Shown here: positions 174-46,288 of the stretch, piece after piece
Numbering within the stretch: the stretch's first letter is position 1
Layout of the letters: every line of letters starts with the position of its first letter
Source of the DNA: a bacterium
GTDB taxonomy: Bacteria; SZUA-182; DTGQ01
Length of the DNA stretch: 64,000 bases
Direction: 5' to 3'
Assembly (NCBI GenBank): GCA_040752695.1
Contig: JBFMGO010000009.1
Span: 9,789 to 73,788, forward strand
The notes under the pieces: model-generated
Told to the model about the DNA's origin: nothing
Database searches by the model: none
What the model saw: the letters and a program-made list of their open reading frames with translations, nothing else
Translations under genes and position numbers: made by a program

Positions 174-3100
174 ATGAGGAAACTTTGGGTGCAAGGGGTA
201 ATTGGGGGGTTATTTTTCCTGCTTCATTTCACAACTCTCAACTTCATGGGTTTTAGGTTCAGCTCCTATTGCTTTGCCGAGACTAATGTTGGCGGCCCCG
301 TAAGGGGGAATGTTACCTGGAGCCTGAATAAAAGCCCCTATATTGTGAAAAGCTCCATTTCGGTTGTGTCGGGTGCTACCTTGACTATAGAGCCAGGGGT
401 GGAAGTGCGGCTTCAGGAAGGCAAGGCCGTCCAGGTAGATGGAACTCTGATAGCCAGAGGGACAGTGGATGCGAAGATTGTCTTTACGACATATCAAAAA
501 AGTCCCTTGGTCAGATGGGGTTACATTCTATTTACGGATAGTAGTGTTGATGCTACAGTTGATGGGGAAAATTACACGGGAGGATCGATCCTGGAGCATT
601 GCCTTGTGGAATATGCCAATGGTGGGGATAGACAGGGTGCTGTAATATGCGAAAAAGCTTCGCCACTTTTCAACTATTGCGAGATCAGGAATAATACAAT
701 CTCAGGGATGAGGATAACTGATAGTTCTAATTTAGTAACCAATTGTAACATAAATAATAACATCTCAGCTTCCTCTGGAGCAGGAATTAATGCAAGTGGT
801 AATAGTACGCTGACTATCATCTCAAGTACAATTACTAACAATGCTTCGGGAGGAACATCGGGAGGAGGAGGAATCTGTTTTACATCACCTGGTATCCTGA
901 CCATCATTTCAAGTACAATTACGAATAACTCTGCAGCTCCAACGCCAGGCAGTGGAAACAATAATTTTTGGGGAGGGGGAATAGCTGCGAATAGTGGTGT
1001 AATTAATATATCTTCCAGCACAGTGGCGGGAAATACCGCGAAAAGGTTCGGAGGAGGAATTCGGGCAAGTGGTTCATCCATAACTGTTTCCAATTGCAAA
1101 ATAGTGAATAATTCTGCTGAAGGATCTGGCGGCGGAATTGCCATGTCGGTGCCTAACGTGACGATAACATCAAGTACTCTATCCAGTAATGTCAGTCATG
1201 GTGCTGGTGGTGGCATTTTTGGTGAATATTGCGGGTCAACGAATATTTCTTATTGCACCATTTACGATAACAAGGCCACCAGCAGGGGAGGAGGCATTGA
1301 TGTAAGAGGCGCTAGTAGTCATAATATTTCTCATAATTTGTTTATGGATAACTCTAGCACGAATCACGGTGCTTTTATTTCGGACGAAAATAGCGCCTCC
1401 TTAAAGCTTACCAATAACACTTTCTTTAGTAATAAGAGCGGACTCTCAGGTATATACCTTAAAGGGACTGCTTACACCATCAGTAACAACAATATCTACG
1501 ATAACCCAACCCAATACGATATTTACTGTGACAATCCCTCTGCATCCCCGGTGCTTAATGCCACCAATAACTACTGGGGCACAGAAGATGAATTCGAAAT
1601 CACCGAGCGTATCTATGACTGGTATGACGACAGCAGCAAAGGCAAGGTGGAATACTATCCCTTCCTGACTGCACCATCCCCTGATGCCCCTCTCCCTGCT
1701 TATTATTTAGACAATGACCAGGATGGCTATGGTGATTCCAGTAAGCCAATGCAAACCTTGACAGCTACCCAGGGCTATGTAGATAATCCCAATGATTGCA
1801 ATGATAATGATGCTACTATCAATCCCGCTGCTCAGGAAGTCTGTGATAACATGGATAATGACTGCGATGATAAGATAGATGAGGATCTTACCCAAACGTG
1901 TCCTGATGGCGAGGGGAAAGCCAGTTGCCAGAACGGTCAGTGGGTGGGTTGTTGTGTTCCAACGCCCGAAACCTGCGACAGCAAGGATAATGACTGTGAT
2001 AGCAAGATAGACGAAGACCTGACCCAGACCTGCTCCACTGCCTGCGGTCAAGGCATAGAAACCTGCCAGAACGGGAAATGGACGGGGTGTACTGCACCAC
2101 AGCCACAAACAGAGACTTGCGATGGGAAAGATAATGATTGCGACAATCAGATAGATGAGGAAGTAAAGAGTACCTATTATGCAGATAATGACAAAGATAC
2201 CTATGGCAATCCCTCTCAAAGCATTCAAGCGTGCTCTGCACCTTCCGGCTATGTTGTAGATAAAACTGATTGTAATGATACAGATAACCGCATTCACCCT
2301 GGAGCACCTGAAATCCCCTGCAATGACAAAGACGATGACTGTGTAGGAGGAGATGATTGCAGTCACATAGGAGAGTGTGTAGAAGATAATTCGGGGACAA
2401 TAGATATCGTAGGCACTCAAGAAAGGGTCGGAGGCGAAATTCAAATCCCTATAAGAATTCAATCTGCACCTGGTGAAGTTAATTCTATCGGTTTTGAAGT
2501 GGCGTATGATCCGAGCATTTTGGAATACACAGGCTTTGAGCAAAAGGATTTAGTCGCTTCTTTTGATATGCTTAATATCAACCCCTCTGGTTCTGGCAGG
2601 TTAAAAGTGGCCGGGTTTTCAGCCACAGGAGGTATTGTACAGGGAGCAAGTGGTGATTTGATCCACTTAAAATTCAAGGTAAAAAGCGGTCAAGAAAATG
2701 AATGCTATCCTTTGCAACTGGAGAATTTAAAAGATCACATAACCAATTTTTCTCATTCAAGTGGATGTTTTTGTATCCATAGCTGTAATGGAGATCTTAA
2801 TAATGATGGAGAAATTACTCCACTTGATGCCCTCATCGCCTTTAAATGCTACCTGGGCTTGTTGGACTCTTGCCCTGATTATGCTGATGTAAATCAGGAC
2901 GGCGAGATAACTCCGCTCGATGCTCTTTGTTTGTTTCAAGAATATCTGGGGCAACCATCCTGTTTAGATAAACAGATATGTACTGATCATGATGGAGATG
3001 GTTTTGCCGTTGAAGGTGGGAAATGTGGTCCAATAGATTGCAACGATAGTGATTCAGCTACTTACCCAGGAGCTAAGGAAACGTGTGTAGATGGACAAGA

Positions 3101-4911: not shown

Positions 4912-6051
4912 TCATTGACTAGAAGCTCCGTTCCACACACCGAACAGCGGTAATTGTACTCTTTTGGAGGAGGACCGAATGGCTCTTCCATCACCTTCAT
5001 CATTGAAGGGTTTTTGCTCCTTTGTCTCATATTTACCTTTCTTCATCTCCTCAAGCTCGTTATAGATAATACCATATTTGGGGTGCCATATTAGCCAGAT
5101 ACCCATCTCTTGCCCACAACGGGGACAAATGAACGGATCTTTCCCTGTGCTCTCCTGGTATCTTTCCCGATAGGTTTTAGGAGTGATAATCTGAATCGCA
5201 CCATGAACTGCTCTCTTTATTTTGGCCAGGGCTTCTCGAACAATTACCTTAATCTTCTCGAAAGTCTTGGTCGCTTGAACCCCGTAATACCTGATCCTTT
5301 TAAACCCTTTGGGAAGAACATGCTGGATCATTCTCCCGATAAAGGTATATACATCCACGATCTCTTTCTCTACCTTCTCCGTCTTGTGAGACCGGTAATG
5401 ATAGGTCACGCTCTGCCCATCATAGGCATCTATTCTTCTCACCGAAATCGGTGGACTCACCACATATTTAGCCAGGTATTTGGCTAAACTCTTATAGCGG
5501 GCTGGTACATCCCCTGTTTGCACATGGGCTACAAACCCTTTCGGATAGCGCTCGTAGCAATAATCTACCAACCTGTCTATCTCATCCGTATCCAACTGCT
5601 CTCTTAACATCTCCAGCAAATACCACTGCCACTTCCTATGCAGCACATGATACGGTAAATAATTCAAAGAGACCCACTTGCAACTCTCCTCATCCAATCC
5701 CCCGCTGGTTGCTATAATGTGAAGATGGGGATTATATTGACCATTTCTCCCATGAGTCTGGAGCACTACTATGTAGCCTCCCTTTAACCTCTTCCTACTC
5801 ACGCAGCTAAAAAAATCATCCAGACACTTGTTTACAAGTCTCATGAACGGCCCCAATAATTCTGGATGATTGTAGAAGGTCTGACGTAAAACTTCTGGTA
5901 CGGTCAGTATAATATGCCGGTAGATCACTCCCTCATGCAGCATCTTGCTTATCTGGCTAACCCAATCATCTACATACACCTTCCCGCATCGCAAGCACAG
6001 TGAACACTTGCAACTCATCGATACTATTCTTGTCCCCTGCCCGCAATGCAT
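4912..6051 (-). CDS. IS91-family transposase, main body (HUH motif 'NPHLHIIATSGGL', C-terminal CxxC zinc ribbon)
   Basis: 'GGYIVVLQTHGRNGQYNPHLHIIATSGGL' matches the IS91/IS801 HUH motif. 'SMSCKCSLCLRCGK' is the N-terminal zinc-binding domain. C-terminal 'CPRCGQEM'. Confidence 0.75.
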   Translation of the reverse strand: MHCGQGTRIVSMSCKCSLCLRCGKVYVDDWVSQISKMLHEGVIYRHIILTVPEVLRQTFYNHPELLGPFMRLVNKCLDDFFSCVSRKRLKGGYIVVLQTHGRNGQYNPHLHIIATSGGLDEESCKWVSLNYLPYHVLHRKWQWYLLEMLREQLDTDEIDRLVDYCYERYPKGFVAHVQTGDVPARYKSLAKYLAKYVVSPPISVRRIDAYDGQSVTYHYRSHKTEKVEKEIVDVYTFIGRMIQHVLPKGFKRIRYYGVQATKTFEKIKVIVREALAKIKRAVHGAIQIITPKTYRERYQESTGKDPFICPRCGQEMGIWLIWHPKYGIIYNELEEMKKGKYETKEQKPFNDEGDGRAIRSSSKRVQLPLFGVWNGASSQ

Positions 6052-6224
6052 AATCGGTACTCAATATAGCCCATCTTTTCCGGCGTGCCACAGGCCAACA
6101 TCCTCTCCACCAGGTTGTCATAATAGGGAGTATCGTACAATGGGTACAATCTCTTGAATTCTTCCCAATGATCGGCGAATATCTGTTTGAATACGCTCCA
6201 GCCTGGCTTCTGCTTCCCTCCCAT
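6024..6224 (-). pseudogene. N-terminal fragment of the same IS91 transposase, separated from the body by an apparent 1-nt frameshift near 6046
   Basis: 'FADHWEEFKRLYPLYDTPYYDNLVERMLACGTPEKMGYIEYRLC' resembles the IS91 TnpA N-terminus (ERMLAC...KMGY.EYRC). The frame is offset from the 379-aa ORF and overlaps it by 28 nt. Restoring one C in 'ttatgcattgcggg' would give 'YRLCHCGQG'. Confidence 0.5.
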
Positions 6225-6332: not shown

Positions 6333-7253
6333 TTACATCCGGGTGACTTCTCGACGGGATTCAAGCACAAAATTCCAAAGGGCCTGAGCGACCGGCGAAA
6401 GGGTTTTCGAGCGAAGACGAACAAGATAGAAATTTCTGGTGAACCGTGCATTGCGCAAGGGGACAGCTTTCAAAAGGCTGGCTGCAAGTTCACATTTCAG
6501 TGCAGCTCCTGGGATGAGACAGACACCCATGCCTGCCACGGCAGCCCGCTTTACCGCTTCGATGCTGCCCATGTGCGCCACGACCTTGAGCTCTGATTGG
6601 GATATGTTTTTTTGGGAAAATACCCTTTCGATCAATCGCCTGGTCCCAGATCCTTCCTCTCTCATGATAAACGGGAACTCTCTGGCCTGGGCCAGAGTGA
6701 GATTTTCGGAAATCTCAGGGAAATGAATTGGAGAATAGGTGAGCAAAAGCTCATCGTCGCCCAGAATGCAGGAGGCGAATTGCTCTTCATCAGGCATGCT
6801 GCCCACTGCTCCAAGCTCCACTTTCTCCAGGCAGACATCCCGTAAGATACTGGCCGTGTTTCCCGTAATAAGGTGAACAGTGACCTTTGGGTGTACCTTT
6901 ATGAAACCGGATATGATATCCGGCAGGATATAGGCTGCCGGTGTCGTGCTTCCACCAAGCGAAACGCTCCCCTCGATTCTGTTTAAAAAGGTATTGACCG
7001 CAGCAATGGCCTCTGTGCGTGCGGTAATAACTTTTAACCCCATTCGATACAATACCTCACCGGCCGGCGTAAGATGAATCCGGTTCTTACGGCGGTCGAA
7101 TAGTGGTACGCCCAGTTCAGATTCAACGGTTCGAATATGAGTGCTGATTGTGGACTGCTTGATGCCAAGACACAGCGCGGCCTCGGAGAAGCTCCCCAAT
7201 TCTGCACAGGTACAAAAAACTTCCAGATGATGAATGTCTATATTCATCTTCAT
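6333..7253 (-). CDS. LysR-family transcriptional regulator
   Basis: N-terminal HTH 'IHHLEVFCTCAELGSFSEAALCLGIKQSTISTHIRTVESELGVPLFDR' followed by a LysR substrate-binding domain. First gene of the selenium-associated same-strand array. Confidence 0.85.
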   Translation of the reverse strand: MKMNIDIHHLEVFCTCAELGSFSEAALCLGIKQSTISTHIRTVESELGVPLFDRRKNRIHLTPAGEVLYRMGLKVITARTEAIAAVNTFLNRIEGSVSLGGSTTPAAYILPDIISGFIKVHPKVTVHLITGNTASILRDVCLEKVELGAVGSMPDEEQFASCILGDDELLLTYSPIHFPEISENLTLAQAREFPFIMREEGSGTRRLIERVFSQKNISQSELKVVAHMGSIEAVKRAAVAGMGVCLIPGAALKCELAASLLKAVPLRNARFTRNFYLVRLRSKTLSPVAQALWNFVLESRREVTRM

Positions 7254-7367: not shown

Positions 7368-8525
7368 CTATTCGCCTCTCGCATAGGATTTTAATGCATA
7401 TATGGCAATGTCAATCTCCTTCTCGGTATTAAAATAAGACAGGGAAAACCGGACCGTTCCATGCGGAAAAGTGCCCAGGGTTTGATGAGCCAGCGGTGCA
7501 CAGTGCAGCCCTGGTCTTGCGCATATTCTCCACTCGCGGTCAAGGTAATAGGAAATTTCTGAAGCCAATGCTCCCTTCATGTTAAATGAAACCACAGCTA
7601 CCCGCTCGGCTTCGGGTGCGTAAACTTCAATCTCATCAATTTCCCGGAGCTTTTGCAGCAGATACTGCGTTAATTGCTGTTCACGCTCGATGATCTTCTC
7701 TATTCCCTCATCCAGAATGAACTGAATACCTGCGCCTAGGCCAGCCAGTCCTGGCGTGTTTACTGTTCCTGCTTCGAATTTATCCGGTGGAAAATCGGGC
7801 TGAACTGCTTTTTCCGATAAACTGCCCGTCCCTCCGCACATAAAGGGTGCGAGAGCATCAGGATCTTTAACAATGAGAGCGCCGGTCCCCTGAGGCCCGA
7901 AAAGATGCTTATGGCCGGTTATGGCAAAAAGGTCAAACGGCGTCCTGGCTAAATCTATCTTCATTGCCCCTGCACCCTGCGCACCATCGACCAGGAGTTT
8001 CACCCCCTTTGCCCTGCACGTTTCATATATTCCAGCCAGATCAAGCTTCGTGCCGCACACATTGGAGGCTGAAGTAACGGCAGCAAGTCTGGTTTCATTG
8101 CCTATGGCTGCTTCGATCTTTTGAGGAGTGATCAGGCCGTTTCTGTCCCCCTGGACGATTTTAAGCTTGATCCGGCCTTTGTTTTTAAGATGATTGAGCG
8201 GTCTTTGCACTGAATTGTGTTCCATAGAGGTGGTTAAGACTTCCCCCCCCGATTCCGATTCCATGGTTCCGTAAAGGGCTATATTCAGTGCTTCCGTGGC
8301 GTTTTTAGTCAGGATGACTTTTTCCGTTTCGGGAAAATTGAAAAGCTCCCCTATTGCCTCACGGCAGTGATAGACAATCTCTGCCGCTTTGATTGACAAA
8401 AGATGTGAGGACCTGCCCGGATTGGCATTGGTATTTTTCAGGCAATCAATGATAGCCTCAGTCACTGAAAGGGGCTTGGTTCCCGAAGTGGCTGCATGGT
8501 CGAAATAAATTACTTTTTGCTCCAT
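7368..8525 (-). CDS. Class V aminotransferase: cysteine desulfurase / selenocysteine lyase-like enzyme
   Basis: PLP-lysine motif 'ITGHKHLFGPQGTGALIV' and the overall NifS/CsdA-like pattern, 385 aa. Confidence 0.75.
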   Translation of the reverse strand: MEQKVIYFDHAATSGTKPLSVTEAIIDCLKNTNANPGRSSHLLSIKAAEIVYHCREAIGELFNFPETEKVILTKNATEALNIALYGTMESESGGEVLTTSMEHNSVQRPLNHLKNKGRIKLKIVQGDRNGLITPQKIEAAIGNETRLAAVTSASNVCGTKLDLAGIYETCRAKGVKLLVDGAQGAGAMKIDLARTPFDLFAITGHKHLFGPQGTGALIVKDPDALAPFMCGGTGSLSEKAVQPDFPPDKFEAGTVNTPGLAGLGAGIQFILDEGIEKIIEREQQLTQYLLQKLREIDEIEVYAPEAERVAVVSFNMKGALASEISYYLDREWRICARPGLHCAPLAHQTLGTFPHGTVRFSLSYFNTEKEIDIAIYALKSYARGE

Positions 8526-8667: not shown

Positions 8668-9351
8668 TTAAATGGTAATCACCTTGGTTGATGTGAGCAT
8701 AGCTTCTGAAATATCATACATGTTGGAAATTTTGCCTGCGCCGAGCTCTCCGGTGAGATGAAAGTAATTCAGGCAGGTTCCGCAGACCAGAAGCTCAATT
8801 CCTTTTTCTTCGAGCTCCTGCAGATAAGCAAGGGTTCCGGCCCCCTTGATCGTCAATTTTACGCCGCTGTTCATGAAACAGATTGTTCTGGGTTGAACGG
8901 ACAGATCTTTAATGGTGGCTATGAAGGCATTGAGGAGGTTAATGCCCAATTCATCACCGCCCTGCCCAATGCGGTCCCTGGTAATGAAGATCGTTGTGCT
9001 TGTGCCTGCCTGGTAGGGGGAGGTACAGGAGTAGTCTTCCGGATTGAATCCAGCCATCGATTTCATTGATTCTTTTAATTTCATTGATCCTGATGGTTCT
9101 GTGGTTATCACCTGGCCCGACAAATCATTGGCAGGTCCAGCCTGAGTGTATATGTGAAATTCGCCCTTCTGCTCTTCCACACGGTCAATCTGTGCTCCGC
9201 TGCGCTTAAGAAACCTTACTACGTTATCCCTTGATGCTGCGCTGCTGACCATTACCAAAAGAGACTGTCCGCTCGCCTGCTCAAATGCTTCCTTTGTCTT
9301 TACCACAGGTTTGGGGCAATCCAACCCTCTGGCGTCTACGAGTATTGACAT
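8668..9351 (-). CDS. yedF: YedF-like selenium-metabolism protein (TusA-like N-domain with CPxP motif plus DsrE-like domain)
   Basis: N-terminal 'LDCPKPVVKTKEAF' is the TusA CPxP motif. The ~130-aa C-terminal half is DsrE/DsrF-like. Size and architecture match YedF. Confidence 0.65.
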   Translation of the reverse strand: MSILVDARGLDCPKPVVKTKEAFEQASGQSLLVMVSSAASRDNVVRFLKRSGAQIDRVEEQKGEFHIYTQAGPANDLSGQVITTEPSGSMKLKESMKSMAGFNPEDYSCTSPYQAGTSTTIFITRDRIGQGGDELGINLLNAFIATIKDLSVQPRTICFMNSGVKLTIKGAGTLAYLQELEEKGIELLVCGTCLNYFHLTGELGAGKISNMYDISEAMLTSTKVITI

Positions 9352-9522: not shown

Positions 9523-10377
9523 TCACTCCCCGATCCTGTCCCTTCTTGAAGCATGCACAGCCGCACCAAGAGCACCCACCATCTGGGGATTTTCCGGTAC
9601 AATCAGCTTTCTCCCAAGCTTTTTCCCAAGGAGCATGGCCAGGCAGGGATTCAAGGCTCCACCCCCGGCAAAGAGGATCGGATGCCTCAGGCCGACCCGG
9701 TTGACCATGGGCTCTATTCTCTCCACAATAGACTGGTGAATTCCCAGTGCGATGGTGTGGGGATCTTCGCCCTTGGCCAGCAGTGAAATTACTTCCGACT
9801 CAGCGAAAACAGTACACATGCTGTTGATCTTTATGAAACTTTTGGCCATGAGCGCAAAGCTTCCAAATTCAGCGATTTCAATTTCAAAGGAATGAGCCAT
9901 GACCTCGAGAAACTTGCCGGTCCCTGCCGCGCAACGGTCGTTAATGGCAAAATCTTCGAATGAGCCGTTCCCTGCCAGGGCAATTACCTTGGTGTCTTGC
10001 CCTCCGATATCAATAACCATCCGCGCTTGTGGGTGCAGATAGTGTGCTCCAAGGGCAAAGGCCTTGATCTCGGTTATAGTCCGCCCGGCAAGATTCCCAT
10101 GGGCCATGCGGCGGCCATACCCTGTGGCCACAGTATGTTGACAGTCTTTCTCTGCCCGGTCCTTATTCGCCCCGTCTTTCTCTGCGTGGCCCTTCTCATC
10201 CGCCGCGCCTTCATTTGCGCCTTCATTGCCTTCTTTCTGTAAAGCGCGGCGAAGCTTCTTGAGGGGATTTACTCCGCCAGTCATAACCTTGAATTCCACA
10301 ATGCCATTATTCTGATCCAGGATGACATACTTGGCCGTTCGAGAGCCAAGGTCAATACCGATAAAAGCCATTTTCAC
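9523..10377 (-). CDS. BadF/BadG/BcrA/BcrD-type ATPase (HgdC-like activator of 2-hydroxyacyl-CoA dehydratase / double-cubane reductase) with a low-complexity insert
   Basis: N-terminal 'MAFIGIDLGSRTAKYVIL' is the ASKHA ATPase phosphate-1 motif. 'CAAGTGKFLE' and 'FAGGGALN' match HgdC-family motifs. Insert 'EGNEGANEGAADEKGHAEKDGANKDRAEKD' is encoded by a short tandem-duplicated DNA segment. Confidence 0.8.
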   Translation of the reverse strand: MKMAFIGIDLGSRTAKYVILDQNNGIVEFKVMTGGVNPLKKLRRALQKEGNEGANEGAADEKGHAEKDGANKDRAEKDCQHTVATGYGRRMAHGNLAGRTITEIKAFALGAHYLHPQARMVIDIGGQDTKVIALAGNGSFEDFAINDRCAAGTGKFLEVMAHSFEIEIAEFGSFALMAKSFIKINSMCTVFAESEVISLLAKGEDPHTIALGIHQSIVERIEPMVNRVGLRHPILFAGGGALNPCLAMLLGKKLGRKLIVPENPQMVGALGAAVHASRRDRIGE

Positions 10378-10476: not shown

Positions 10477-11751
10477 TCACGATTTAATCCGCTCCAGAAA
10501 GGCTTCAATTCTTGTCTGGATCTGCCCCGCATCTTCGGCGGCATAATCCGTTTCAATCTTGAGCACAGGGATACTGGCCTCTTTCAGAGCCTGTTCAACC
10601 TTTGTGTACTCGACATTGTAGGTATGGCAGAACTGAAGGGTATTGTAAACTACACCGTCAACATGATATTCCCTGGCATAGTGTATGATCTGCTCGGTTC
10701 TCTCATGGTTAGGAGTAAAGCAGGAGCAGTTTATGGACAGGTACCTGCGGGCAAGAGCATCCAGTTGTCCGTTCAAATCGGCCGATGACTCATCGACCAG
10801 GGTCTCGAAGTAGCGCGTTCCCGTACATGCTTCCTCAACAACTACCGATGCCCCCGATGTTTCGATAATATGATGCAGCTTCCAGTTGGGTACGACACTT
10901 GGACAACCGGAAAGCATAACGCGGGGCGCATCTTCGGCAAATGGGCTGATGCCCTTTTCAATTCTATTGTTCAGTTCCGCTTTCAGTTTATTTACTGCTG
11001 CGGTAAATCGCGGGATATCGTCATAGAATGCGACCTGCGAAATTAAAAGGGCATCCTTCCCGCTGATTGGCGAGGGTTGATGCTTGCGGGTTTCGTATAA
11101 GCCGGCCAGTGCTCTCCTTTTATTGTTCATGACTGCTATGGCCTCTTTCACATTCTCGAAGCTGATCTTTGTCCTGCCTGCCTCTTCCAGTTTTTCCATC
11201 AGCCTTTCAATCTCCAGGCGGTATATGCTTTGCCCTGCTTCATTTTTCATATGGGGAACATGCATAACCTGGGTTGGAATGAAATTGTTCAGAACCTCCC
11301 AGGCTTTCTTTTTGCCATCGCAGGTGGTTTCTCCAATGAGAAAATCGGAGGACTCAAAATAAGGGCAAATCCGGGCCAGTTTAAATCCGACGGATGACTT
11401 TATCAATGGACAGATGTTTCGTGGCAGGAATTCTTCCGCTCTGGAAATGGTAAGATCCGCCCCGCCGCACAGTCCGATCGGCAAGCCCCCGGCAGCAAGG
11501 ACTAACTCGTCAGGCACAAAGAGACAAAAAGTGCCAGCTATGAATCCACCTTTGGCCTTATGCTCCAACAGTTCCTTGATGCGCAGGCCATGAACCTCAC
11601 CGATAACAAAATCGAAATATTCCATGGCTTCAGGCCGTTTATCCTGCCTAAGGTAGATGTCGGTATAGACTTGCCCCAGGACATCAAGAAGATTGCAGTG
11701 AGTTTCAAGGTCAATGTTTAAGCTCTTCCATATTTCATCATAAGTGCTCAT
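10477..11751 (-). CDS. 2-hydroxyacyl-CoA dehydratase / BcrC-BadD family protein, single subunit (double-cubane-cluster-protein-like)
   Basis: 424 aa with HgdB/HGD-D family cysteines ('CGGADL', 'ICPLIKSS', 'TTCDGKKK'). Immediately downstream of its ATPase activator. Only one dehydratase-like subunit is present. Confidence 0.7.
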   Translation of the reverse strand: MSTYDEIWKSLNIDLETHCNLLDVLGQVYTDIYLRQDKRPEAMEYFDFVIGEVHGLRIKELLEHKAKGGFIAGTFCLFVPDELVLAAGGLPIGLCGGADLTISRAEEFLPRNICPLIKSSVGFKLARICPYFESSDFLIGETTCDGKKKAWEVLNNFIPTQVMHVPHMKNEAGQSIYRLEIERLMEKLEEAGRTKISFENVKEAIAVMNNKRRALAGLYETRKHQPSPISGKDALLISQVAFYDDIPRFTAAVNKLKAELNNRIEKGISPFAEDAPRVMLSGCPSVVPNWKLHHIIETSGASVVVEEACTGTRYFETLVDESSADLNGQLDALARRYLSINCSCFTPNHERTEQIIHYAREYHVDGVVYNTLQFCHTYNVEYTKVEQALKEASIPVLKIETDYAAEDAGQIQTRIEAFLERIKS

Positions 11752-11815: not shown

Positions 11816-12142
11816 TTAAACGAATTTGAATTTCTTTTTCCTTTGCGCCTCGTCGTCCTTTTCCCAGCGGTAAATCTGATCGATCTCTACCCGGTTATCG
11901 GTAAGGATTTTTTCGATTTCTTCCTTTTCCTGCCAGGGGATCTTGCAGCAAAAGCCGCAGTTGGAGCTGAACTCCCTTGGTACCGGTATCATTTCGGGCT
12001 TTTTGCCGCACTTGTCAAGCACACTTTTAGCTTTGAGAGCAAAGTGGGTGGTTTGAAAGGTTATAACTGCATAGACCGCCATGCTGACTCCGTGATGGGT
12101 AAATATCCCAACAAGGGATTTGCCGTTACTCTTCTCTGACAA
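11816..12142 (-). CDS. DUF3343-like small protein (putative Se/S carrier protein family)
   Basis: 'YAVITFQTTHFALKAKSVLDKCGKKPEMIPVPREFSSNCGFCCKI' matches the pattern of DUF3343 proteins found in selenium-utilisation loci. The antisense 110-aa ORF has no recognisable features. Confidence 0.55.
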   Translation of the reverse strand: MSEKSNGKSLVGIFTHHGVSMAVYAVITFQTTHFALKAKSVLDKCGKKPEMIPVPREFSSNCGFCCKIPWQEKEEIEKILTDNRVEIDQIYRWEKDDEAQRKKKFKFV

Positions 12143-12473: not shown

Positions 12474-13241
12474 TCAATTCGTTGTAGAAGCTTCAGCAGA
12501 GCTTAAAAATACAGGGATAATCACTTCCGGTGTGGTTTTACTGTCTGTCTTGATAATCACCTGACCATTCACTCTGGTACTGTCCTTTTGTGCTTTGGCT
12601 GAAACAATAATCGCCAGGGACTCATTCTGTTTCAAACCGAACGGTAACTTGCTGTCTTCCTTTGCTGCTTTTACCGAAATAGCGGAGGAAGGGGCCGTAT
12701 TTATGGATAGAATAGACATCGTGTCCTTGCCGGTATTTTTCAGCACTACCTCCTGAGTTGCCACCTCACCCGCCTTTACCTGCCTGAAATAGGCATTAGG
12801 AGGTGAAGCTTCCAGATCGACTCTGACCATAGCCTCAATGGTCAGTTGAGAGACCGGGTGGGCCTGATCATCGGAATGGACATAGATGACCTTCTTTTGT
12901 TTATCCTTACGATATGCAGAATTAAAGGTAATCTCAATCTGCCCGCTTTCACCCGGATTGATTGTCTTGCTGGAGAGAACTGCTGCGGTGCATCCGCAGG
13001 ATGTCTTCACTCCGTTGATGTTCAGTACCTGATCACCGATATTTTTGAAGCTAAAAATATGATTAACCTTTTTATTCTGGTATATCTCCCCAAAATCAAA
13101 CGAGGTCTCAGGAAAAGTAATCTGAGGGCCCGCTAGTGCGTATGCCGGATAGAGTATATATGATAGCGATAACACGGCCAAAATGAACAAACTCATCAAC
13201 AAGGCTGATAAGGAGGTCGCTGGGATTTGATTCTTTCTCAT
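12474..13241 (-). CDS. Secreted DUF1573-domain protein
   Basis: N-terminal signal/TM 'ATSLSALLMSLFILAVLSLSYIL' and the DUF1573 hallmark 'NINGVKTSCGCTAAVL'. Confidence 0.6.
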   Translation of the reverse strand: MRKNQIPATSLSALLMSLFILAVLSLSYILYPAYALAGPQITFPETSFDFGEIYQNKKVNHIFSFKNIGDQVLNINGVKTSCGCTAAVLSSKTINPGESGQIEITFNSAYRKDKQKKVIYVHSDDQAHPVSQLTIEAMVRVDLEASPPNAYFRQVKAGEVATQEVVLKNTGKDTMSILSINTAPSSAISVKAAKEDSKLPFGLKQNESLAIIVSAKAQKDSTRVNGQVIIKTDSKTTPEVIIPVFLSSAEASTTN

Positions 13242-13356: not shown

Positions 13357-15666
13357 TTACCTTTTCGGGTCTCTCAGTGTCCGGATATCTCCGGTCCGGC
13401 TGGTGAATCCGATAGAGTCGAGGTAATCCAGAATCAAAACGGTGGTCCTTCGGCTCAGGTCAGCTATATTGCTGCGGAAATCTGCAATGGTAAGGCTTTT
13501 TTCCTTTTGTATATATGCTGTTATCATCTCCTTGAGTTTATTCAAAGGCTGACTATGGATGATGGTATCTGGCGTGATGCGGATTAAAACGCCCTGACTT
13601 ACGAGCATCTTCAATAACCTCTCCACCTCCTCTCTATGTTGGGTGTTGCATATGGTGTTATTTTTAATGCTGCTTTGATGGGTGTTGTTCCGGGTGCCGT
13701 TTTGAGAGTTATTATGGGTACTATTGACAATGTTCTGGTAAAGGTGACTTATCTTTAATGGCTGGTATCCGCTGGATAGAAACACTCTTTCCATCATAGT
13801 AATAATTTCCTTCTGCCAGGAATTTAATGACGGCCTATGATCGGCCAGCCTGACATGAGGACCTTCCAGCGCTATGGCCTGACGCGCTTCGAGGTCCCCG
13901 ATCAGGCAATGAAAGAGCCGGATATCCATCTCTCCTGATGTCCTTGCCCTGAGCATCTCTTTGCCCATACCCTTTTCAAGGGGATTTTGGCTATGAAATT
14001 TTTGCAGAGTGTCTGTTATTTTCCTTTTGATGCTCGCAGCTTGCTTGCTGGCAAAAAGAAATTCTTCTTTATTCTTATCAATATTCTTATCAATATTCTT
14101 ACCAATACCGTTACTATTACTATAACTGCTCCCGTTAGCATTACCGTTCTTCTTATCAATATCTTTATCAAGGCAATAGAGAACGCCTTTGTTTTTTAGC
14201 CGGGTCAGGATATCGTTAAGCTCGATATGAGTAAGCGCAGTCTTCCTGAGCAATTCGGTTTTCGTGCAAAGGGTGAAGGTATGTCGTGAGATTATCTCAC
14301 TGACGAAGCTCTCGAACCTTCCCTGCTCCAGGAGTTCAAGCCGGGCTATTCTGCCTGTACCCTTCGAAGTGACGCTTGTATCTTTCAGGACGCTGCCTGC
14401 GCCCTTCGAGATACTGCCTGCGCTCTCCGAGATACTGTAACGCCTGGGATGGGCATCAAGGATAACACCTCCGCCAATAGTATGCTGGGGGCTGAGAGAT
14501 CGGATAATGAATCTATCGAATACCAGAGGCGACGCCTTTTCCTCCAGCCTGAATTGGACAATAGCCTGCTCGCCGGGCTGCATCTTGTCTCTATCCATGA
14601 GAATTACTCTGGCTATGAGCTCGGTGGTGCCGGTATACAGGCGTACTCTGGTCCTGTTGACCAGGGGAGAGGCATTTGATTCCAGGTACCGGAGCCTGGC
14701 ATCCAGTATGCCGGTTGGAAGCAGCAGTGAATCCGGCGGTGCGATGGTATCACCTCTTTTAATCTGAGAAGTGCTGATACCGGCCAGGTTAAAGCCGACC
14801 CGCTGCCCTGTCCGGGCCTCTTCAACCCATTGGTTATGTACCTGAATACCACGGATCTTGACCTTGCAGCCCGCAGGATAAATCATTGCCGCAGATCCGG
14901 GCCTCACATTTCCATCCACAAGCGTGCCGGTAGCTATCGTGCCGTAGCCTGCCATGGTAAAAACCCGGTCTACCGGAAGCCGGAATTCACCCTTAAGTCT
15001 GGTTTTTTCGACTTTGCCGATGAGTTCCGTAAGAGCCGTGTTTACCTGGCCAATTCCCTCGCCGGTCCGGCATGAGCAATCGATTATCGACGTTTTCCGG
15101 AGAAAGGTCGGCTCAATGAGCTTGGCAACTTCCTCGTGAACCAGTTCCAGCCAGTCCCTGTCCACCAGATCGACCTTGTTTACCACGACAAGCCCGAATC
15201 TGATTCTCAGCAGTGAGAGAATATCGAGGTGTTCTCTGGTCTGAGGCATGGGACCATCATCGGCTGCTATGACCAGAATGACTATATCGACTCCTGATAT
15301 TCCCCGCAGCATGTTCTTGATAAATTTCTCATGCCCCGGACAATCGATAATACTTACCACGTGCCCGCTGGGGAGCCGATAGGGGGCAAATCCTGGTTCT
15401 ATCGATATGCCCCGAACCTTTTCCTCTTTCAGCCGGTCCGTATCCACGCTGGTAAGGGCTTTAGCCAGAGCGGTCTTGCCGTGGTCGATATGCCCGGCCA
15501 GGCCTATGGCAACATTCCGCACTACATCTCCAGCTACTTTTTGCGCCTGGCCGCTGGACCCATTTTGCCCCAGACCGCTGGATCCATTCCGCGCCAGGTA
15601 GCTATATCCACTCTGTCCCAAGTATCGAACTCCATTCTGTGTCAGGTCCGCAGTTCTATTCTTCAA
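13357..15666 (-). CDS. selB: Selenocysteine-specific translation elongation factor SelB (with N-terminal extension and an internal low-complexity insert)
   Basis: G-domain motifs 'AGHIDHGKT', 'DCPGHEKF', 'VVNKVDL'. Domain order EF-Tu-like then C-terminal winged-helix region. 769 aa versus about 620 typical. Insert '[30 protein letters not shown]' derives from tandem 'ttcttatcaata' repeats near 14080-14115. The true start may be downstream of 15666. Confidence 0.85.
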
Positions 15667-15718
15667 TGAAATGAAAAGTTACCCAACTTTTTCTTTCATC
15701 TCTTGCCACAAGGAAAGA

Positions 15719-15822
15719 GAGGTTCAAAAGAGAGGGTAAGGGGAATCGAACCTCCTACGGCCCTTGCACAGGCCGACCAGCGGATTTGAAGTCCGTGGGG
15801 CACACCAGTACCATTACCCTCG
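15719..15822 (-). tRNA. selC: tRNA-Sec (anticodon UCA), selC; ends approximate
   Basis: Minus-strand sequence contains 'GGACUUCAAAUCC' (anticodon arm core identical to E. coli selC), a long variable arm 'CGGCC-UGUGCAAG-GGCCG', the T-loop 'GGUUCGAUUCC' and an 8-bp acceptor stem 'GAGGGUAA/UUACCCUC'. Sits immediately upstream of selB. Not folded with software. Confidence 0.72.
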
Positions 15823-15959
15823 ATTATGTGAGTACAAATAATGCAACTTTATATGGTTAAGCGAGATGATATCTCGGTAACTTACCATGGCCAGGCAAAA
15901 TAAGGATATATCCTCGAAGTACATCGGAGAGCGAAAGATGACGGCAATCCCCGGATTGC

Positions 15960-16200
<241 letters not shown>

Positions 16201-16218
16201 GAATCGGTCATAGAGCGC

Positions 16219-16270
16219 TGGTTTGGATAGAGCTTGGTTGAATAGAGTTTTGTTGGATAGAGCTGGACTG
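16219..16270. repeat. Three imperfect direct repeats 'ttGGATAGAGCt' spaced about 16 nt apart
   Basis: 'ggtttggatagagcttggttgaatagagttttgttggatagagctgg'. Could be a regulator binding array; non-coding region. Confidence 0.5.
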
Positions 16271-17263
16271 AATTCAGAGATTAAATACAGTTGAGTTTCA
16301 GGGGTGTAATGTGGTTTTTGCTGCAAAGGCAGAAATTTAAGGAAAGACAGAAATGATAGAAATGAGGAAGGCATAGTGGTTCCTTACCATTGCCCCAGCC
16401 AACGGCCAGAGTTGACGTATTATAATCAATACTGCCCGATAAATCCGTGTAAATGAGTCTTTTTTATAGGATACATAATCATCCTTCTCCAAGAAGACAT
16501 ACCTGCCATCCAAAAGCAGAATTAATGGTAACAATGTAATTACCATAGCAGTCAAATATGGATTCTTTTTTATCACAAGCTGAATAATATGTCAATCATG
16601 AAATTTTCGCTCATTGGATATCGAGTTATCATTGAAAGTTGTGTATGAGAGGTTAGGTGGTTCGATATCCCGCACATCTTCAATGTGAGGCGGAAACTCG
16701 GATGATGATTCCCTGTTGTTTTTCTGATAATTCCCTGCTGTTCACCTTCAGCACCACGCATGTTCAGAATCTACACTCATTGTGCCAGGGGTATCCTCTT
16801 CATCACCATTCCCCCGTGAGCCCTTCCCCCCTGTGACCTTCTCCTCATAAACCCTCCCCTTTCCCTCAAGCTATTCTATCCACCCGTGTATTATTCCCCG
16901 TATGCCATTTCCTTATGTGCCATTCCTCCAGTGAACCATTTCCCTTCCCCGGTTTTCCCGCGAGCATGAAAATTGCTATCTCATCGTGTAAGCAACTAAG
17001 AGGCCATCCCAAAACCTCCGGCAGACGATAAACCAGTTACTCCAAATGAGGTTTTGGGAAAGGTTCTAAGTACAAGCCGCGTGAATTACACGACCAGTGT
17101 CATGAGTACTGTCATGAGTACCGCTGATACCAAATTATGTTGGGGGGGCTCTTTGCCCCACCTAATTCAGCGGAAAACCTCATCAAAGAGGCTTTGCATA
17201 CACAACCGAGTGCTCTTGTCAAGCCTCAATTGATGGGTAAAATAATGACCGCTGGGACCTCCC

Positions 17264-29700: not shown

Positions 29701-30340
29701 ATATCAGACCGGTGAAATGAATTCCTAAAGCCTTCTCCCTAACTTAGAAAGGCCGTGTTCTCGTAAAATGGCAGGAATGCGACCCGGTTTGCAGAAATGC
29801 CAAACCCCTTTTTTTACTTCCCTGCTCGAAGGACTTACCATGAAGGTTTTCCTTAAGGGCATTTCTCTTCTCCACAAGTATGCAAAAGAGTTTACAGCTT
29901 TTCGCCGGGTTGAGAATATAAGTTCTCACTCTCATACCAGGGAGTATAACGAAAATGGAGATAAGTGTAATGATTAAAATCAGTTATTCTTTTCTCCCGG
30001 AGGGGTACAGGTTTTGCAATATTTTCATTCTCTGAACACTTCAGACAGTACTCAATACACTGCGCATGAGGTACATCGCCAGTTGGAATCAGCAAGCAAC
30101 GGGCATGGTGGGCTCTTGACCCACCAAAATCAATGACATCGGGTTGGGCAAAAAAGCCCCGCCCTCAATATTCGACATCAGCGGCACAAAAGAAACTGGG
30201 GGATATTTCCTGCGGTCTGTACTCATAACCTATCCGAAAAATCCTGAAAGGTTGCATAACTCTCAGAGTCAGTTTCACCTTTCGGACAGGCTCTGAATGA
30301 GAAGGTTTTCATTGCCAACTCATGGGAGAAAATTAAATCT

Positions 30341-41126: not shown

Positions 41127-43823
41127 TCAATCTCCCTTGGCTAATCTTTCTATCCTTACTGCACATACTTTCAGTTCCGGAATCTTGGCCACCGGATCGA
41201 TCGCTGTATTGGTTAAGGTATTAGCTGGGGACTCGCGAAAATGGAAGGGAAGGAATACCACTCCTTGAGAGAGTCTGTCAGTAATCAGGGCCTTCACCCT
41301 GATCTCTCCCCTTCTGGACTTTACTAAAATTTCCTCCTCGGAGAGGATATTGATGGATTTGGCATCCTGCTCACTGATTTCCAGATACCCTTCAGGGCAA
41401 ATTTCATCCAAGGGAGCCACCCGCCGGGTCATCGATCCCGTGTGGTAATGAAACAGCCTTCTTCCCGTAGTCAGAGTAAAGGGATATTCCGTATCGGCTA
41501 TTTCAGCCGGAGAGGAGTATTCAACAGGTGTAAACTTGCCCAGTCCCCGGGAGAATCGGCGATGATGCAGGTACTTTGTCCCCTGGTGCTGAGGAGTAGG
41601 ACAGGGCCACTGCAACCCTCCCTCTTCCTCTATTCTCTTGTAGGTTATCCCTCCATAGATAGGAGTCAATTCGGCAATCTCCTGCAAGATCTCCAAAGGG
41701 GAGGAATAGTGCATGGGATAGCCCATTGCGGTGGCGAGATCACAGATGATCTGCCAGTCACTCCTAGCCTCTTCAACCGGAACAAGGGCTTGATTCATCT
41801 TCTGGACCCTTCGTTCCGTATTGGTAACCGTACCTTCCTTTTCGGCGAAACTCACTGCCGGCAAAACAACATCCGCCAATTGAGCGGTCTCTGTTAAAAA
41901 TATATCCTGAACAACGAGAAAGTCAAGAGATTCGAGCTCTTTTTTTACTTTATTCAGATCGGGATCGCTCAGCATCGGATTTTCACCCATGATATAGAGT
42001 CCCTTGATCTCGCCGGTCAGTGCTCGATGAAACATCTCGGTGACTGTCAAACCCGGTTTATTCGATAAAGAGACACCCCATTTATCCTCAAACCTGAGCA
42101 AAATCTGAGGATCAGCAACGCTCTGATAGCCTGGAAAGACATTGGGCAGGCATCCCATGTCACACGCGCCCTGGACATTATTTTGCCCCCTGAGCGGATT
42201 GACGCCGGAATTTTCCTTGCCCACATTACCGGTCAGCATGGCCAGATTCGCTACAGCCAAAACGTGATTGGTGCCGGAGCTGTGCTGAGTAATACCCATG
42301 GCATAAAGGATGGTGGCTGTTTCTGCCCGTGCATAAGCCCGGGCAGCCTCCTGGATCAATGACCCAGGAACGCCTGTTATCTGCGATACCTTCTTGAGGT
42401 CGTATTGGTCAATGACCGCCTTGAAGGCTTCGTACCCTTCGGTACGCTCCTCAATGAAGCGCTGATCTGCAAGCCCCTCGTCTATGATCACTTTCATCAT
42501 GCCATTCAAGAGGGCCACATTGGTTCCTGGCCGCAGTTGCAGCCAGATATCGGCTATGCGGGTCAGTGCGATCGGCCTCGGATCGGCTACGATCAGGGTG
42601 CTTCCGTTTTTCCTGACTGCCTTCTTAACCTGAAGGCCGACAATGGGATGAGCTTCGGTTGTATTGGAACCGATAACCAGAATTGCCTGAGCCTGGCCAA
42701 TTTCGGCGATTGAGTTGGTCATGGCTCCACTGCCAAACGCTGTGGCTAGACCAGCCACGGTAGAGCTGTGTCAAAGCCTGGCGCAGTGATCGACATTGTT
42801 TGTGCCTAAAACCCCCCTCACAAATTTCTGAAAGAGGTAATTTTCCTCATTGGTACACCGGGCCGAACTAAGACCAGCCAGGCTGTTATTTCCGTGCTGG
42901 TTCTTGATCTGCTGGAATTTTTTGGCCACAAGGTTTAAGGCATCATCCCACGAAGCTCTGACATGTTGGCCATTCTTTTTGATAAGAGGATATTTCAAGC
43001 GGTCAGGATGCTGAACAAACCCATAGCCAAATCTTCCCTTGCTGCACAGATAGCCTTCATTTAAAGAAGCGCTATCCGAATGAAGATTGACGATCTTGTT
43101 CTCCCTGATATGAAGTGTCAGATTACAGCCGCATCCGCAGTAAGGGCAGACCGTCTTAACCCATTTCGACTGCCATTTCCTGCCCTGCTGTTTGGAAGGC
43201 TTGGCAGTCAAAGCCCCTACGGGACAGGAAGCAAGGCACTGGCCGCAAAACTCGCAGTTGAGCTTTCGATCGTAAGGGGTGCCGATTCTGGTTTGAAATC
43301 CCCTGCCAATAAACCCGATAGCTGCAACGCCCTGCACTTCATCGCAGACACGCACGCATCGGCCGCACAAAATACACTTGCTGTTGTCCCGCTCGATAAA
43401 AGGATTGGTATCATCGATACTATCGGTCCTCTTCTCACCCGCAAGCCTGGTATCTTTTAATCCGTATTGGTAGGCCAGGTCCTGAAGCAGACAATCACCG
43501 GCTTTTTCACAAAACATGCAGTCTTGAGCATGATCGGAAAGAAGCAGCTCAACAATCAGCTTCCGGTAGGTATCGATCCTCTCCGACTCGGTCCGGATTT
43601 TCATACCCGCAGCGATAAAGGTAGAGCAGGCGGGAACGAGTTTGGGGAGCCCCGCAACCTCCACCAGGCACAGACGGCAGGCACCAAAAGGGCTCAAATC
43701 CCGGCAGTCGCACAGGGTGGGAATCAAGACCGTATTTCCCCTGGCAACCTCCAGAATGGTCTTTCCGGGACTGGCGGCGATTTCTTTTCCATTCATGGAT
43801 ATGTATATTTTTTTTTCTTCCAT
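41127..43823 (-). CDS. fdhA: Formate dehydrogenase catalytic subunit, selenocysteine-containing (NuoG-like N-terminal 2Fe-2S/4Fe-4S domains plus Mo-bisPGD domain); read through the in-frame TGA at 42771-42773
   Basis: Two ORFs in the same frame are separated only by TGA. The context '[25 protein letters not shown]' is the canonical FdhF/FdhA selenocysteine site. N-terminus has 2Fe-2S ('[16 protein letters not shown]') and 4Fe-4S ('[13 protein letters not shown]', '[12 protein letters not shown]') clusters. Confidence 0.85.
42742..42758 (-). promoter_or_regulatory. Bacterial SECIS-like hairpin (GUGGCU-GGUCU-AGCCAC) 13 nt downstream of the Sec UGA
   Basis: Perfect 6-bp stem with an apical loop containing GGUC, as in the E. 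coli fdhF SECIS apex (UGCA-GGUC-UGCA). Spacing from UGA is typical. Confidence 0.6.
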
Positions 43824-43835
43824 GTGCGATTTCCT

Positions 43836-45683: not shown

Positions 45684-45811
45684 AACCCACCCGCTCTCCT
45701 GTTGTCATTGCGATACCCTGATACCTCACAGGCAAAATAACTCGCGGATGCCTCTCTGCCAGAAAGACATGATGCCCGCCAGCAGTGCTTAATGACTTTT
45801 TGGAAATAACG

Positions 45812-46288
45812 TTATTCGTCATGGTGCGATAAACAAGCCAAGATATTATCTATCTTTTGTGGCGTTACCTTATCATAATAAATGTCATCAACCACCATCA
45901 CCGGAGCTAAAGCACACGCACCCAGACAGCCTACCGTCTCTAAAGTAAACGTACGGTCTAAAGTTGTTTCTCCTTCATCTATCTGCAATTTCTCTTTCAG
46001 CACGTCTAAAACGGTCTTACTCCCTTTTACATGACAGGCTGTCCCCCGGCAGACCTTTAGTACGTGTTTTCCTCTCGGCTGAGTATAAAACTGAGCATAA
46101 AAAGTGATAACCCCATAGATTTCACTCGACGGAATGTTTAACCTTTCGACAATCAGGTCAACAGCAACTTCCGGAATATAGGTATAATGTTCCTGTATTT
46201 TTTGAAGGACGGGGATGAGCGCACCTTTCTTATTCTGATAGTCCTTCAATAATTCCCTTGTATAGGTTAGATTTATGTTTTCATCCAT
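45812..46288 (-). CDS. NuoE-like 2Fe-2S thioredoxin-fold subunit (HndA-like)
   Basis: 'VCRGTACHVKGS...CLGACALAPVMVVDD' is the NuoE cluster-binding pattern. Confidence 0.8.
   Translation of the reverse strand: MDENINLTYTRELLKDYQNKKGALIPVLQKIQEHYTYIPEVAVDLIVERLNIPSSEIYGVITFYAQFYTQPRGKHVLKVCRGTACHVKGSKTVLDVLKEKLQIDEGETTLDRTFTLETVGCLGACALAPVMVVDDIYYDKVTPQKIDNILACLSHHDE

Follow-up and report, generated by a model that had tools for sequence, protein, structure and literature searches.

The stretch analyzed here, 64,000 nucleotides of bacterial DNA (contig JBFMGO010000009.1 of assembly GCA_040752695.1; hereafter the window), carries on its minus strand a tRNA gene resembling those for selenocysteine (Sec) and, directly downstream on the same strand, a gene for the elongation factor SelB. 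The tRNA gene spans positions 15731 to 15821, 91 nt including the discriminator (GAGGGUAAUGGUACUGGUGUGCCCCACGGACUUCAAAUCCGCUGGUCGGCCUGUGCAAGGGCCGUAGGAGGUUCGAUUCCCCUUACCCUC-U), and is the sole tRNA gene in the window. ARAGORN called it as tRNA-SeC(tca) at 15730-15821 on the minus strand, and the Rfam model RF01852 matched 15732-15821 of the same strand at 58.9 bits, where the gathering score is 47 (E = 2e-9). A sequence-only reading of this DNA had placed a tRNA-Sec gene, selC, at 15719-15822 and proposed that predictors be run on the interval. The gene is indeed there and is called by both tools, although its true span is narrower. However, such calls cannot separate selC from selC*, because selC* genes are called by tRNA-Sec predictors as well. 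These genes were described by Mukai et al. in 2017 (NAR 45:2776; PMC5389517) as tRNA-Sec-like tRNA-Cys genes that are false positives of tRNA-Sec searches. Their traits are a U73 discriminator, which is the main identity element for cysteinyl-tRNA synthetase (CysRS), a GCA or UCA anticodon, and a selB* gene next downstream (PMC5389517; the definition is also given in PMC7609411). As set out below, the tRNA and SelB of the window belong, with high confidence, to this selC*/SelB* family.

The tRNA has a perfect 8-bp acceptor stem (GAGGGUAA/UUACCCUC) that begins with G1:C72, a 5-bp D-stem (GGUAC/GUGCC) with a 4-nt UGGU D-loop, the anticodon UCA within the loop CUUCAAA, a long extra (variable) arm with a 6-bp stem, and a 4-bp T-stem, GG(A)GG/CCCC, in which the A is bulged. 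The discriminator at position 15731 is a U, and CCA is not encoded in the gene or in those of its clade. The UCA anticodon, the long extra arm, an acceptor stem of 8 bp and the U discriminator had all been recognized from the letters alone. The cloverleaf computed with ViennaRNA has an energy of -39.3 kcal/mol (z = -2.8), and none of 200 shuffled sequences folded equally well.

The sequence-only reading had also reported an A-C mismatch in the T-stem. This A is truly unpaired, but according to covariation it is the bulged A of an 8/4 helix rather than half of a mismatch. Thermodynamic folding did not separate the 8/4 arrangement from a 7/5 arrangement with a bulge, and covariation was thus needed to decide between them. 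We therefore compared three folds on an alignment of 40 sequences of the tRNA family, in which the T-arm cannot vary by construction since it was fixed by the search pattern described below. In the 8/4 fold with a bulged A, 97.2% of the cells were paired and all eight acceptor pairs showed covariation. Pair 8:84 was formed in all 40 sequences, as A-U in 35 and as G-C in 5, with both sides changed. The 7/5 drawing of ARAGORN forces an A.C mismatch upon every one of the 40 sequences and was rejected on covariation; the 7/5-with-bulge structure of ViennaRNA, also set aside, leaves pair 67:84 unpaired in 5 of the 40. The best-supported fold is the 8/4 with a bulged A, matching the D. biacutus selC* experiment; the selC* tRNAs of delta-proteobacteria were described as having a "modified 8/4" helix in which A51a is bulged (PMC5389517). 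The two oddities flagged earlier, U73 and the T-stem A, are the diagnostic features of the tRNA.

Near-identical tRNAs were found at four other loci (L081, L082, L083 and L110), and the SelBs linked to these five tRNAs are only 61 to 64% identical by BLASTP, which indicates purifying selection on the tRNA. All five tRNAs have U73. In the window, the region just upstream of the tRNA (15970-16264) is dense in short tandem repeats, namely (AG)17 and units of 9, 15, 18 and 45 nt, and a 186-aa "ORF" (open reading frame) at 15814-16374 is an artefact of this tract, with no family matches. At L082, a fluoride riboswitch (RF01734, 47.6 bits) lies at 221-292 on the minus strand, about 600 nt upstream of selC*.

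The downstream ORF, 13357-15666 on the minus strand, encodes a SelB protein (TIGR00475, 325 bits, cutoff 242) with the complete domain set, i.e., EF-Tu-like domains 1 to 3 and winged helices (PF00009, PF03144, PF25461, PF09106 and PF09107). We designate it selB*, meaning an additional copy of the Sec elongation factor gene that is linked to a tRNA, on the basis of these profile matches and of the tree and signature residues presented below. The position of its start codon is ambiguous, with three defensible candidates that leave between 64 and 208 nt after the tRNA. The TTG at 15666 (gap of 64 nt) is homologous to the start at L082 and L083 (TTG-AAA-AAT...GGC-YTG-GCC-GGG-CAT). The TTG at 15621 (109 nt) is used in the NCBI annotation (754 aa, MEW5801131.1), and the GTG at 15522 (208 nt; 721 aa) is preceded by a GGAG Shine-Dalgarno sequence at 15528-15531. 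The distance of about 50 nt given in the sequence-only reading thus holds approximately for the first of these starts and for neither of the others. Only from residue 52 of the ORF onward does the sequence match the SelB profile. Alignment with L082 and L083 shows the ancestral start context, TTG AAG AAT, at 15666; an insertion of some 144 nt comes after it in the same frame, and in it Tandem Repeats Finder detected a 24-nt tandem repeat at 15539-15597. The segment from 15523 to 15730 on the minus strand is a tRNA-selB spacer or possibly the 5' end of selB. Three N/S/G-rich insertions of low complexity, all in frame, occur in the window SelB* and in none of its 61 to 64% identical relatives; one lies at 15523-15657 and holds the tandem repeat, and two lie at approximately residues 453-485 and 600-630 of the 13357-15522 frame.

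Co-transcription of the tRNA and selB, as suggested earlier, is plausible. No terminator-like site was predicted on the minus strand between the two genes. A scan for promoters and terminators gave counts no better than those of shuffled sequence, and we therefore make no claim about a promoter.

We determined how common this type of tRNA is by scanning metagenomes with the pattern CTTCAAA-N(27-47)-GGAGGTTCGAWTCCCC, in which only the anticodon loop and the T-arm with its bulged A are fixed, whereas the acceptor stem and the discriminator are free. The pattern required UCA, so that members with a GCA anticodon are outside the sample. The scan returned at least 120 loci, and all counts for the family refer to the matches listed. 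Of 118 that could be evaluated, 113 had at least seven of the eight acceptor pairs, and their discriminators were U in 105, G in 3, C in 3 and A in 2. The 105 U73 tRNAs comprise 53 with A1:U72, 50 with G1:C72 and 2 in which positions 1 and 72 are unpaired. A selB homolog was present on the same strand within 600 nt downstream in 63 of the 83 U73 loci for which at least 700 nt of downstream sequence was available. In the published family, the subgroup with A1:U72 and UCA has cysS*, encoding a CysRS without the anticodon-binding domain, and the G1:C72 tRNAs lack it (PMC5389517). The metagenomic loci reproduce this rule: an ORF for a CysRS catalytic domain (428-446 aa; PF01406, E = 1e-113) abuts selB* at 12 of 21 A1:U72 loci and at none of 20 G1:C72 loci. 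No CysRS-like ORF was found in the 64-kb window.

Several members of the sample depart from this picture. L120 and L142, both from soil metagenomes, share the bulged-A T-arm and an 8-bp acceptor stem, yet they have G73 and selB upstream of the tRNA, and they are the only two listed G73 tRNAs with a different acceptor stem. They appear to represent the "minor (8/4) tRNA-Sec" class, which is likely the ancestor type of selC*. Other tRNAs have non-U discriminators with selB* nonetheless downstream: L166 and L187 (A73, both also with a G8:C pair), L193 (G73 with A1:U72), and L133, L145 and L176 (C73). Finally, 3'-truncated remnants of selC* occur at L091 (1690-1790), L109 (about 6050-6150, minus strand) and L177 (about 350-450, minus strand). 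They run from the 5' acceptor strand through the T-arm, the 3' acceptor strand being replaced by unrelated sequence, and are located directly upstream of the start codon of a double-cubane reductase gene, without selB*. These remnants look like decayed cassettes.

Genuine tRNA-Sec genes served as controls. A genome scan with the window SelB yielded 80 loci with SelB relatives; all matches were at most 40% identical and lay in canonical selB loci, with no ortholog among them. Twenty-six of the 80 control loci carry a tRNA-Sec gene, in most cases downstream of selB. These tRNAs are 95 to 99 nt long and have G73 without exception (26/26), and 25 of the genes encode CCA. The window tRNA differs from them in each respect, with its length of 91 nt, U73, no encoded CCA and a position upstream of selB.

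The phylogeny of SelB supports the same division. A neighbor-joining tree, the only method used, was built from 135 full-length SelB sequences (L001-L205; 633 columns, 200 bootstraps). It split all 49 tRNA-linked SelBs from all 79 canonical SelBs with a bootstrap of 192/200. The window sequence and those of L081, L082, L083 and L110 form a monophyletic group, the window clade (200/200), which joins the tRNA-linked SelBs (196/200) and branches at or near the base of that group. By pairwise identity, the window SelB is 38 to 40% identical to canonical SelBs and 26 to 38% identical to most tRNA-linked SelBs. We dismissed the closer relationship to canonical SelBs that these values would imply as a rate artefact, overruled by the bootstrapped tree, by signature residues and by the presence of two paralogs in one genome. 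In agreement with the tree, an Arg residue in the switch-II helix motif NML-R-G (R73) is found in 100% of the tRNA-linked SelBs and in 0% of the canonical ones; D89, G243 and L701 behave likewise, and the window SelB has all four.

The residues of the Sec-binding pocket, defined structurally by Itoh et al. in 2015 (PMC4605307), vary among SelB* proteins. Both R181 (numbered as in E. coli) and F45 (numbered as in A. aeolicus) are invariant in canonical SelBs, at 79 of 79 sequences each. Most SelB* proteins have replaced them, with Q181 in 30 of 44 and I/V45 in 41 of 44; in contrast, both R181 and F45 persist in the window clade and in a second early branch (L102 and L199). D180 and R236 are invariant in all SelBs compared. 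Residues 45, 186 and 73 of the window protein were numbered from the GTG at 15522. The same two early branches keep the 4-nt UGGU D-loop in their tRNAs, in contrast to the 3 nt of most other tRNAs of the family. In a limited literature search, we found no published description of the R181/F45 replacement or of the R73 signature.

To see whether the window SelB is a second copy, we turned to related genomes. AtpD of the window has 94 to 96% identical relatives in unclassified bacterial metagenome-assembled genomes (MAGs), and proteins were tied to their assemblies by accession numbers. Assembly GCA_023512255.1 carries the same cassette of U73 tRNA and SelB on contig JAILZY010000011 (L081; SelB MCL6582693) and, in addition, a canonical operon of selA, selB and a radical SAM gene on contig JAILZY010000013 (L210; SelB MCL6582816). 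Its two SelBs (P0004 and P0253) are 40% identical. In GCA_040755755.1, of the same genus, with an AtpD 96% identical to that of the window, the canonical selA-selB genes (L212) and the atp operon (L213) are on one 145-kb contig, which excludes a binning artefact. Protein P0075 of a further relative, GCA_016934595.1 (AtpD 81% identical), was used as a query and led to the canonical paralogs. An alignment of seven SelB proteins resolved two clean paralog families within the window lineage. The coexistence of two paralogs in a sister genome indicates that the tRNA-linked SelB is a SelB* in the published sense; all selC* genomes examined by Mukai et al. also had a complete selABCD set (PMC5389517). 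Therefore, of the selC-selB pair of the sequence-only reading, what stands is a tRNA gene followed directly, on the same strand, by a gene of the selB family; the pair is not a canonical one, judging by U73, the 8/4 fold, the position in the SelB tree and the selA-selB genes of the sister genomes. No other sel genes are present in the 64 kb of the window.

The pair heads a cassette of genes transcribed in the same direction, many of which relate to selenium. Directly after selB* lies a gene for a DUF1573/OS_HP2-family (seleno)protein in its Cys form, with an SCGC motif (12474..13241, minus strand; NF041425, 100.4 bits; PF07610), and this gene occupies the same position in every window-clade locus with downstream sequence (L081, L082 and L110; L083 ends too soon). 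The cassette continues on the minus strand with genes for a putative Se/S carrier protein (11816..12142; PF11823; kept in L081, L082 and L110), a double-cubane-cluster anaerobic reductase of the HGD-D family (10477..11751; NF040772, 488.6 bits) and its partner, an acyl-CoA dehydratase-type ATPase activase (9523..10377; TIGR00241, 234 bits, and co-occurrence). These are followed by genes for YedF, a sulfurtransferase-like selenium-metabolism protein (8668..9351; TIGR03527, 189 bits), and for a class V aminotransferase similar to cysteine desulfurases and selenocysteine lyases (7368..8525; TIGR01977, 422 bits), which also matches the SclA model with 320 bits, below the cutoff of that model. At the distal end is a gene for a selenium-metabolism-associated LysR regulator (6333..7253; NF040786, 248.6 bits, just under the cutoff of 250), orthologs of which also close the cassette in L081 and L082. 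A transposase-like ORF (4912..6051, minus strand), assigned to the IS91/Y2 family by eye from its translation only, borders the cassette.

The gene order is kept in L081, L082 and L110: tRNA, selB*, DUF1573/OS_HP2 (Cys form), Se/S carrier, (double-cubane reductase and activase), YedF, desulfurase/Sec-lyase-like enzyme, (ABC transporter) and Sec-associated LysR. In L081 and L082, the desulfurase and LysR genes are separated by four ABC-transporter genes, which the window lacks. The flanks of the cassette differ in each genome, and GCA_040755755.1 lacks it at the syntenic position beside its atp operon. Synteny with that genome begins only at about 17.6 kb of the window, and the cassette (6.3-16.4 kb) thus looks like an accessory insertion. 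The association with the reductase extends beyond the window clade, as an HGD-D reductase gene adjoins selC*-selB* in 13 of 49 full-length loci, compared with 1 of 79 canonical selB loci. The double-cubane reductase gene is often the first after selB* in unrelated metagenome contigs, and reductase and activase genes are found beside selC*-selB* at L090, L097, L107, L116, L121, L124, L150, L156, L178, L186, L202 and others. Genes for YedF, for a Sec-type LysR and for a YedE-like Sulf_transp protein (L122 and L157) recur around selC*-selB* as well.

Outside the cassette, the window encodes a Sec-containing formate dehydrogenase alpha subunit, FdhA (41127..43835, minus strand), with an in-frame UGA at 42771-42773, a classic Sec site, which indicates that the organism uses UGA as a Sec codon. 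A hairpin, GUGGCUG-GUC-UAGCCAC, begins 13 nt after this UGA, which is a suitable distance; its energy is not significant (z = -0.8), and it is only compatible with a Sec insertion sequence (SECIS). The fdhA mRNA is a candidate client of SelB and/or SelB*. A NuoF-like gene (43836-45704) and a NuoE-like gene (45812-46303) are found upstream of fdhA, and the window has an FdhE-like gene at 30260-31264. The window also contains a very large ORF of 2264 aa without a stop (50542-57336, minus strand).

By homology to the published system, we infer that CysRS charges the tRNA with cysteine and that SelB* delivers it to UGA codons marked by a SECIS, a reading to which we give a probability of about 0.65. 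The tRNA would be transcribed together with selB* or just before it and, after processing, would receive its CCA end from the CCA-adding enzyme. The housekeeping CysRS would then charge it with cysteine, as in the published G1:C72 class, which has no dedicated cysS*. The 8-bp acceptor stem would exclude EF-Tu, and the tRNA would be bound by SelB* and brought to a UGA followed by a SECIS hairpin, such that Cys would replace Sec, for example in the Sec-type FdhA of the window. The location of the pair together with genes for LysR, YedF, a Se/S carrier, a desulfurase/Sec-lyase-like enzyme and the double-cubane reductase suggests a module that responds to selenium status, and the gene content suggests that the cassette may serve as a backup when selenium is scarce.

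A number of observations weigh against this reading or against parts of it. The SelB* proteins of the window clade retain the canonical pocket (R181, F45, D180 and R236), which makes the assignment of cysteine less secure for this clade than for the derived one, and the window tRNA retains the UGGU D-loop of tRNA-Sec. A U73 together with a long variable arm is also acceptable to seryl-tRNA synthetase (SerRS), as stated for allo-tRNAs (PMC5389517). The neighbor-joining tree may be affected by long-branch attraction, and the sample of the tRNA family is biased toward the T-arm of the window, which the pattern fixed. Lastly, the coexistence with canonical selA-selB was shown only for sister genomes (AtpD 94 to 96% identical), and a canonical G73 tRNA-Sec was not located in those sister genomes, with none within 10 kb of selAB.

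Several of these points would fit a second true Sec pathway, or a tRNA of dual Ser/Cys identity, in which SerRS charges the tRNA, SelA converts the serine and the SelB paralog delivers the product, perhaps to some selenoprotein mRNAs only or in certain states of selenium supply. In addition to the D-loop and the tolerance of SerRS for U73, such a pathway would account for the acceptance of the tRNA by tRNA-Sec models, for the presence of every canonical pocket residue (F45, D180, R181 and R236, as well as R30) and for the many selenium-handling genes of the cassette. We nevertheless regard it as unlikely, because the discriminator is U in the whole clade and in 105 of the 113 listed family tRNAs but G in all 26 canonical ones, because the acceptor/T helix has 12 bp rather than 13 and the D-stem 5 bp rather than 6, and because one branch of the family has acquired a dedicated CysRS. 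Furthermore, the sister genomes already have canonical selA-selB, and the canonical pocket does not exclude cysteine, since A. aeolicus SelB bound L-cysteine in a crystal (PMC4605307). The proposal that the organism has a single canonical selC and a single canonical selB, and that the pair is these two genes transcribed together, agrees with the predictor calls, with the SelB equivalog match above cutoff, and with a window that contains a Sec-type fdhA but no further sel genes. This proposal is, however, largely refuted for the clade and hardly tenable: GCA_023512255.1 has the same locus alongside a selA-linked SelB only 40% identical, the selA-selB genes of GCA_040755755.1 are linked to the atp operon in a genome that lacks the cassette at the syntenic site, and the SelB tree, U73 and the 8/4 fold point the same way.

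That the RNA does not function in translation, and that the selB* operon instead starts with a tRNA-like leader, a regulatory RNA or a pseudogene in decay, would be consistent with its place at the 5' end of the operon, the lack of an encoded CCA in the clade, the 3'-truncated copies at L091, L109 and L177, and the regulatory roles raised for some allo-tRNAs (PMC5389517). Yet the cloverleaf is complete (97% of cells paired), each of the eight acceptor pairs shows compensatory changes, neither the anticodon loop CUUCAAA nor the T-loop varies, and the tRNA is near-identical across loci whose SelBs are at 61 to 64% identity, which together make this reading very unlikely. An encoded CCA is, moreover, missing from many bacterial tRNA genes. 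Translational activity was demonstrated for the D. biacutus selC*, which suppressed UGA in E. coli (PMC5389517). As this occurred without the native SelB*, the experiment could, with the UCA anticodon, be taken to favor a general opal suppressor that works through EF-Tu independently of SECIS, UGA being read as Cys genome-wide. We find this highly improbable given the dedicated SelB paralog linked to the tRNA in 63 of 83 listed loci, the 8-bp acceptor stem, an EF-Tu antideterminant (Baron and Bock 1991, cited in PMC7609411), and the cost that UGA readthrough throughout the genome would carry. All readings other than delivery of cysteine and a second Sec or dual-identity pathway have, taken together, only a small chance of being correct.

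The window clade may be a living intermediate in the birth of a system that recodes Sec sites with cysteine, a possibility that we put forward tentatively and consider rather doubtful. In such an intermediate, the tRNA and SelB would have been duplicated and the discriminator would already have changed from G73 to U73, i.e., from Ser/Sec to Cys identity. The elongation factor would have kept the ancestral selenolate-binding pocket (R181, F45), which later branches would have remodeled to Q181 and I/V45, and the pair might handle both Cys-tRNA and Sec-tRNA. A portable selenium-scarcity module of this kind would keep Sec-containing formate dehydrogenase and similar proteins translatable by means of Cys at UGA-SECIS sites. 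The company that the pair keeps, namely selenium-handling genes and a LysR of the Sec-associated type, suggests that selenium may determine whether Sec or Cys is inserted at UGA. For annotation, standard tools and the NCBI pipeline label such pairs tRNA-Sec and SelB, and selC*/SelB* genes, which are abundant in metagenomes (more than 100 loci), are thereby silently merged with the true Sec machinery. The two can be separated by the discriminator (U73 versus G73) and the SelB signature R73, D89 and G243. The replacements in the pocket of derived SelB* proteins, set against the two early branches, represent natural mutants for binding studies.

The kind of system found here has been known since 2017 and is not categorically new. 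Charging with cysteine has been published only for the tRNAs of D. tiedjei and D. biacutus (PMC5389517). The window pair is most readily compared with the D. tiedjei type of selC*/selB*, with which it shares the cloverleaf, U73, UCA, the 8/4 helix with a bulged A51a, a selB paralog downstream, G1:C72 without cysS* and, to judge from sister genomes, a canonical selA-selB elsewhere in the genome. Unlike that type, the window SelB* is basal and retains R181 and F45, its tRNA has a D-loop of 4 nt (UGGU) rather than 3, a variable arm longer by 2 nt and no encoded CCA, and the spacer measures 64 to 208 nt in place of the typical 16 to 100 nt. The host also lies outside the phyla listed for selC* (Firmicutes, Thermodesulfobacteria, Nitrospirae and delta-Proteobacteria; PMC5389517), as the nearest named relatives of its AtpD are from Spirochaetota MAGs with at most 77% identity, a single marker that is only indicative. 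If this taxonomic placement holds, it would extend the range of hosts known for natural machinery that recodes UGA to Cys. The D. biacutus type (selC*/selB*/cysS*, from Desulfobacterales) is similar in tRNA architecture, U73, UCA and the linked SelB*. However, it has A1:U72 and a dedicated CysRS gene right after selB*, in contrast to the G1:C72 of the window and the absence of a CysRS gene from its 64 kb.

Canonical tRNA-Sec has in common with the window tRNA the UCA anticodon, the 8-bp acceptor stem, the long variable arm, the UGGU loop and a passing score with RF01852, and its partner is likewise a full SelB with the canonical pocket. It differs by G73, a 13-bp (8/5) helix and a 6-bp D-stem, as against U73, 12 bp (8/4 with a bulge) and 5 bp, and the window SelB is a paralog, the selA-linked SelB being found elsewhere in the sister genomes. 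The minor (8/4) tRNA-Sec with a bulged A51a (PMC5389517; L120 and L142) shares the GGAGG/CCCC T-arm, the 8-bp stem and the 4-nt D-loop; in contrast to the window tRNA, with its U73 and its location upstream of a SelB* paralog, it has G73 and is encoded downstream of selB. Allo-tRNAs, of 8/4 or 9/3 type, resemble the window tRNA in their 12-bp acceptor/T helix, long variable arm and, sometimes, U73. They have diverse anticodons, no bulged A51a and no linked SelB, are predicted Ser acceptors and are linked to toxin-antitoxin genes (PMC5389517). Membership in that group was ruled out for the window tRNA by its linked SelB paralog, selenium-gene context, bulged A51a and UCA anticodon. Against this background, and judging from its sequence, the window locus looks like an early-branching, less-derived variant of the selC*/SelB* system in an unexpected host.

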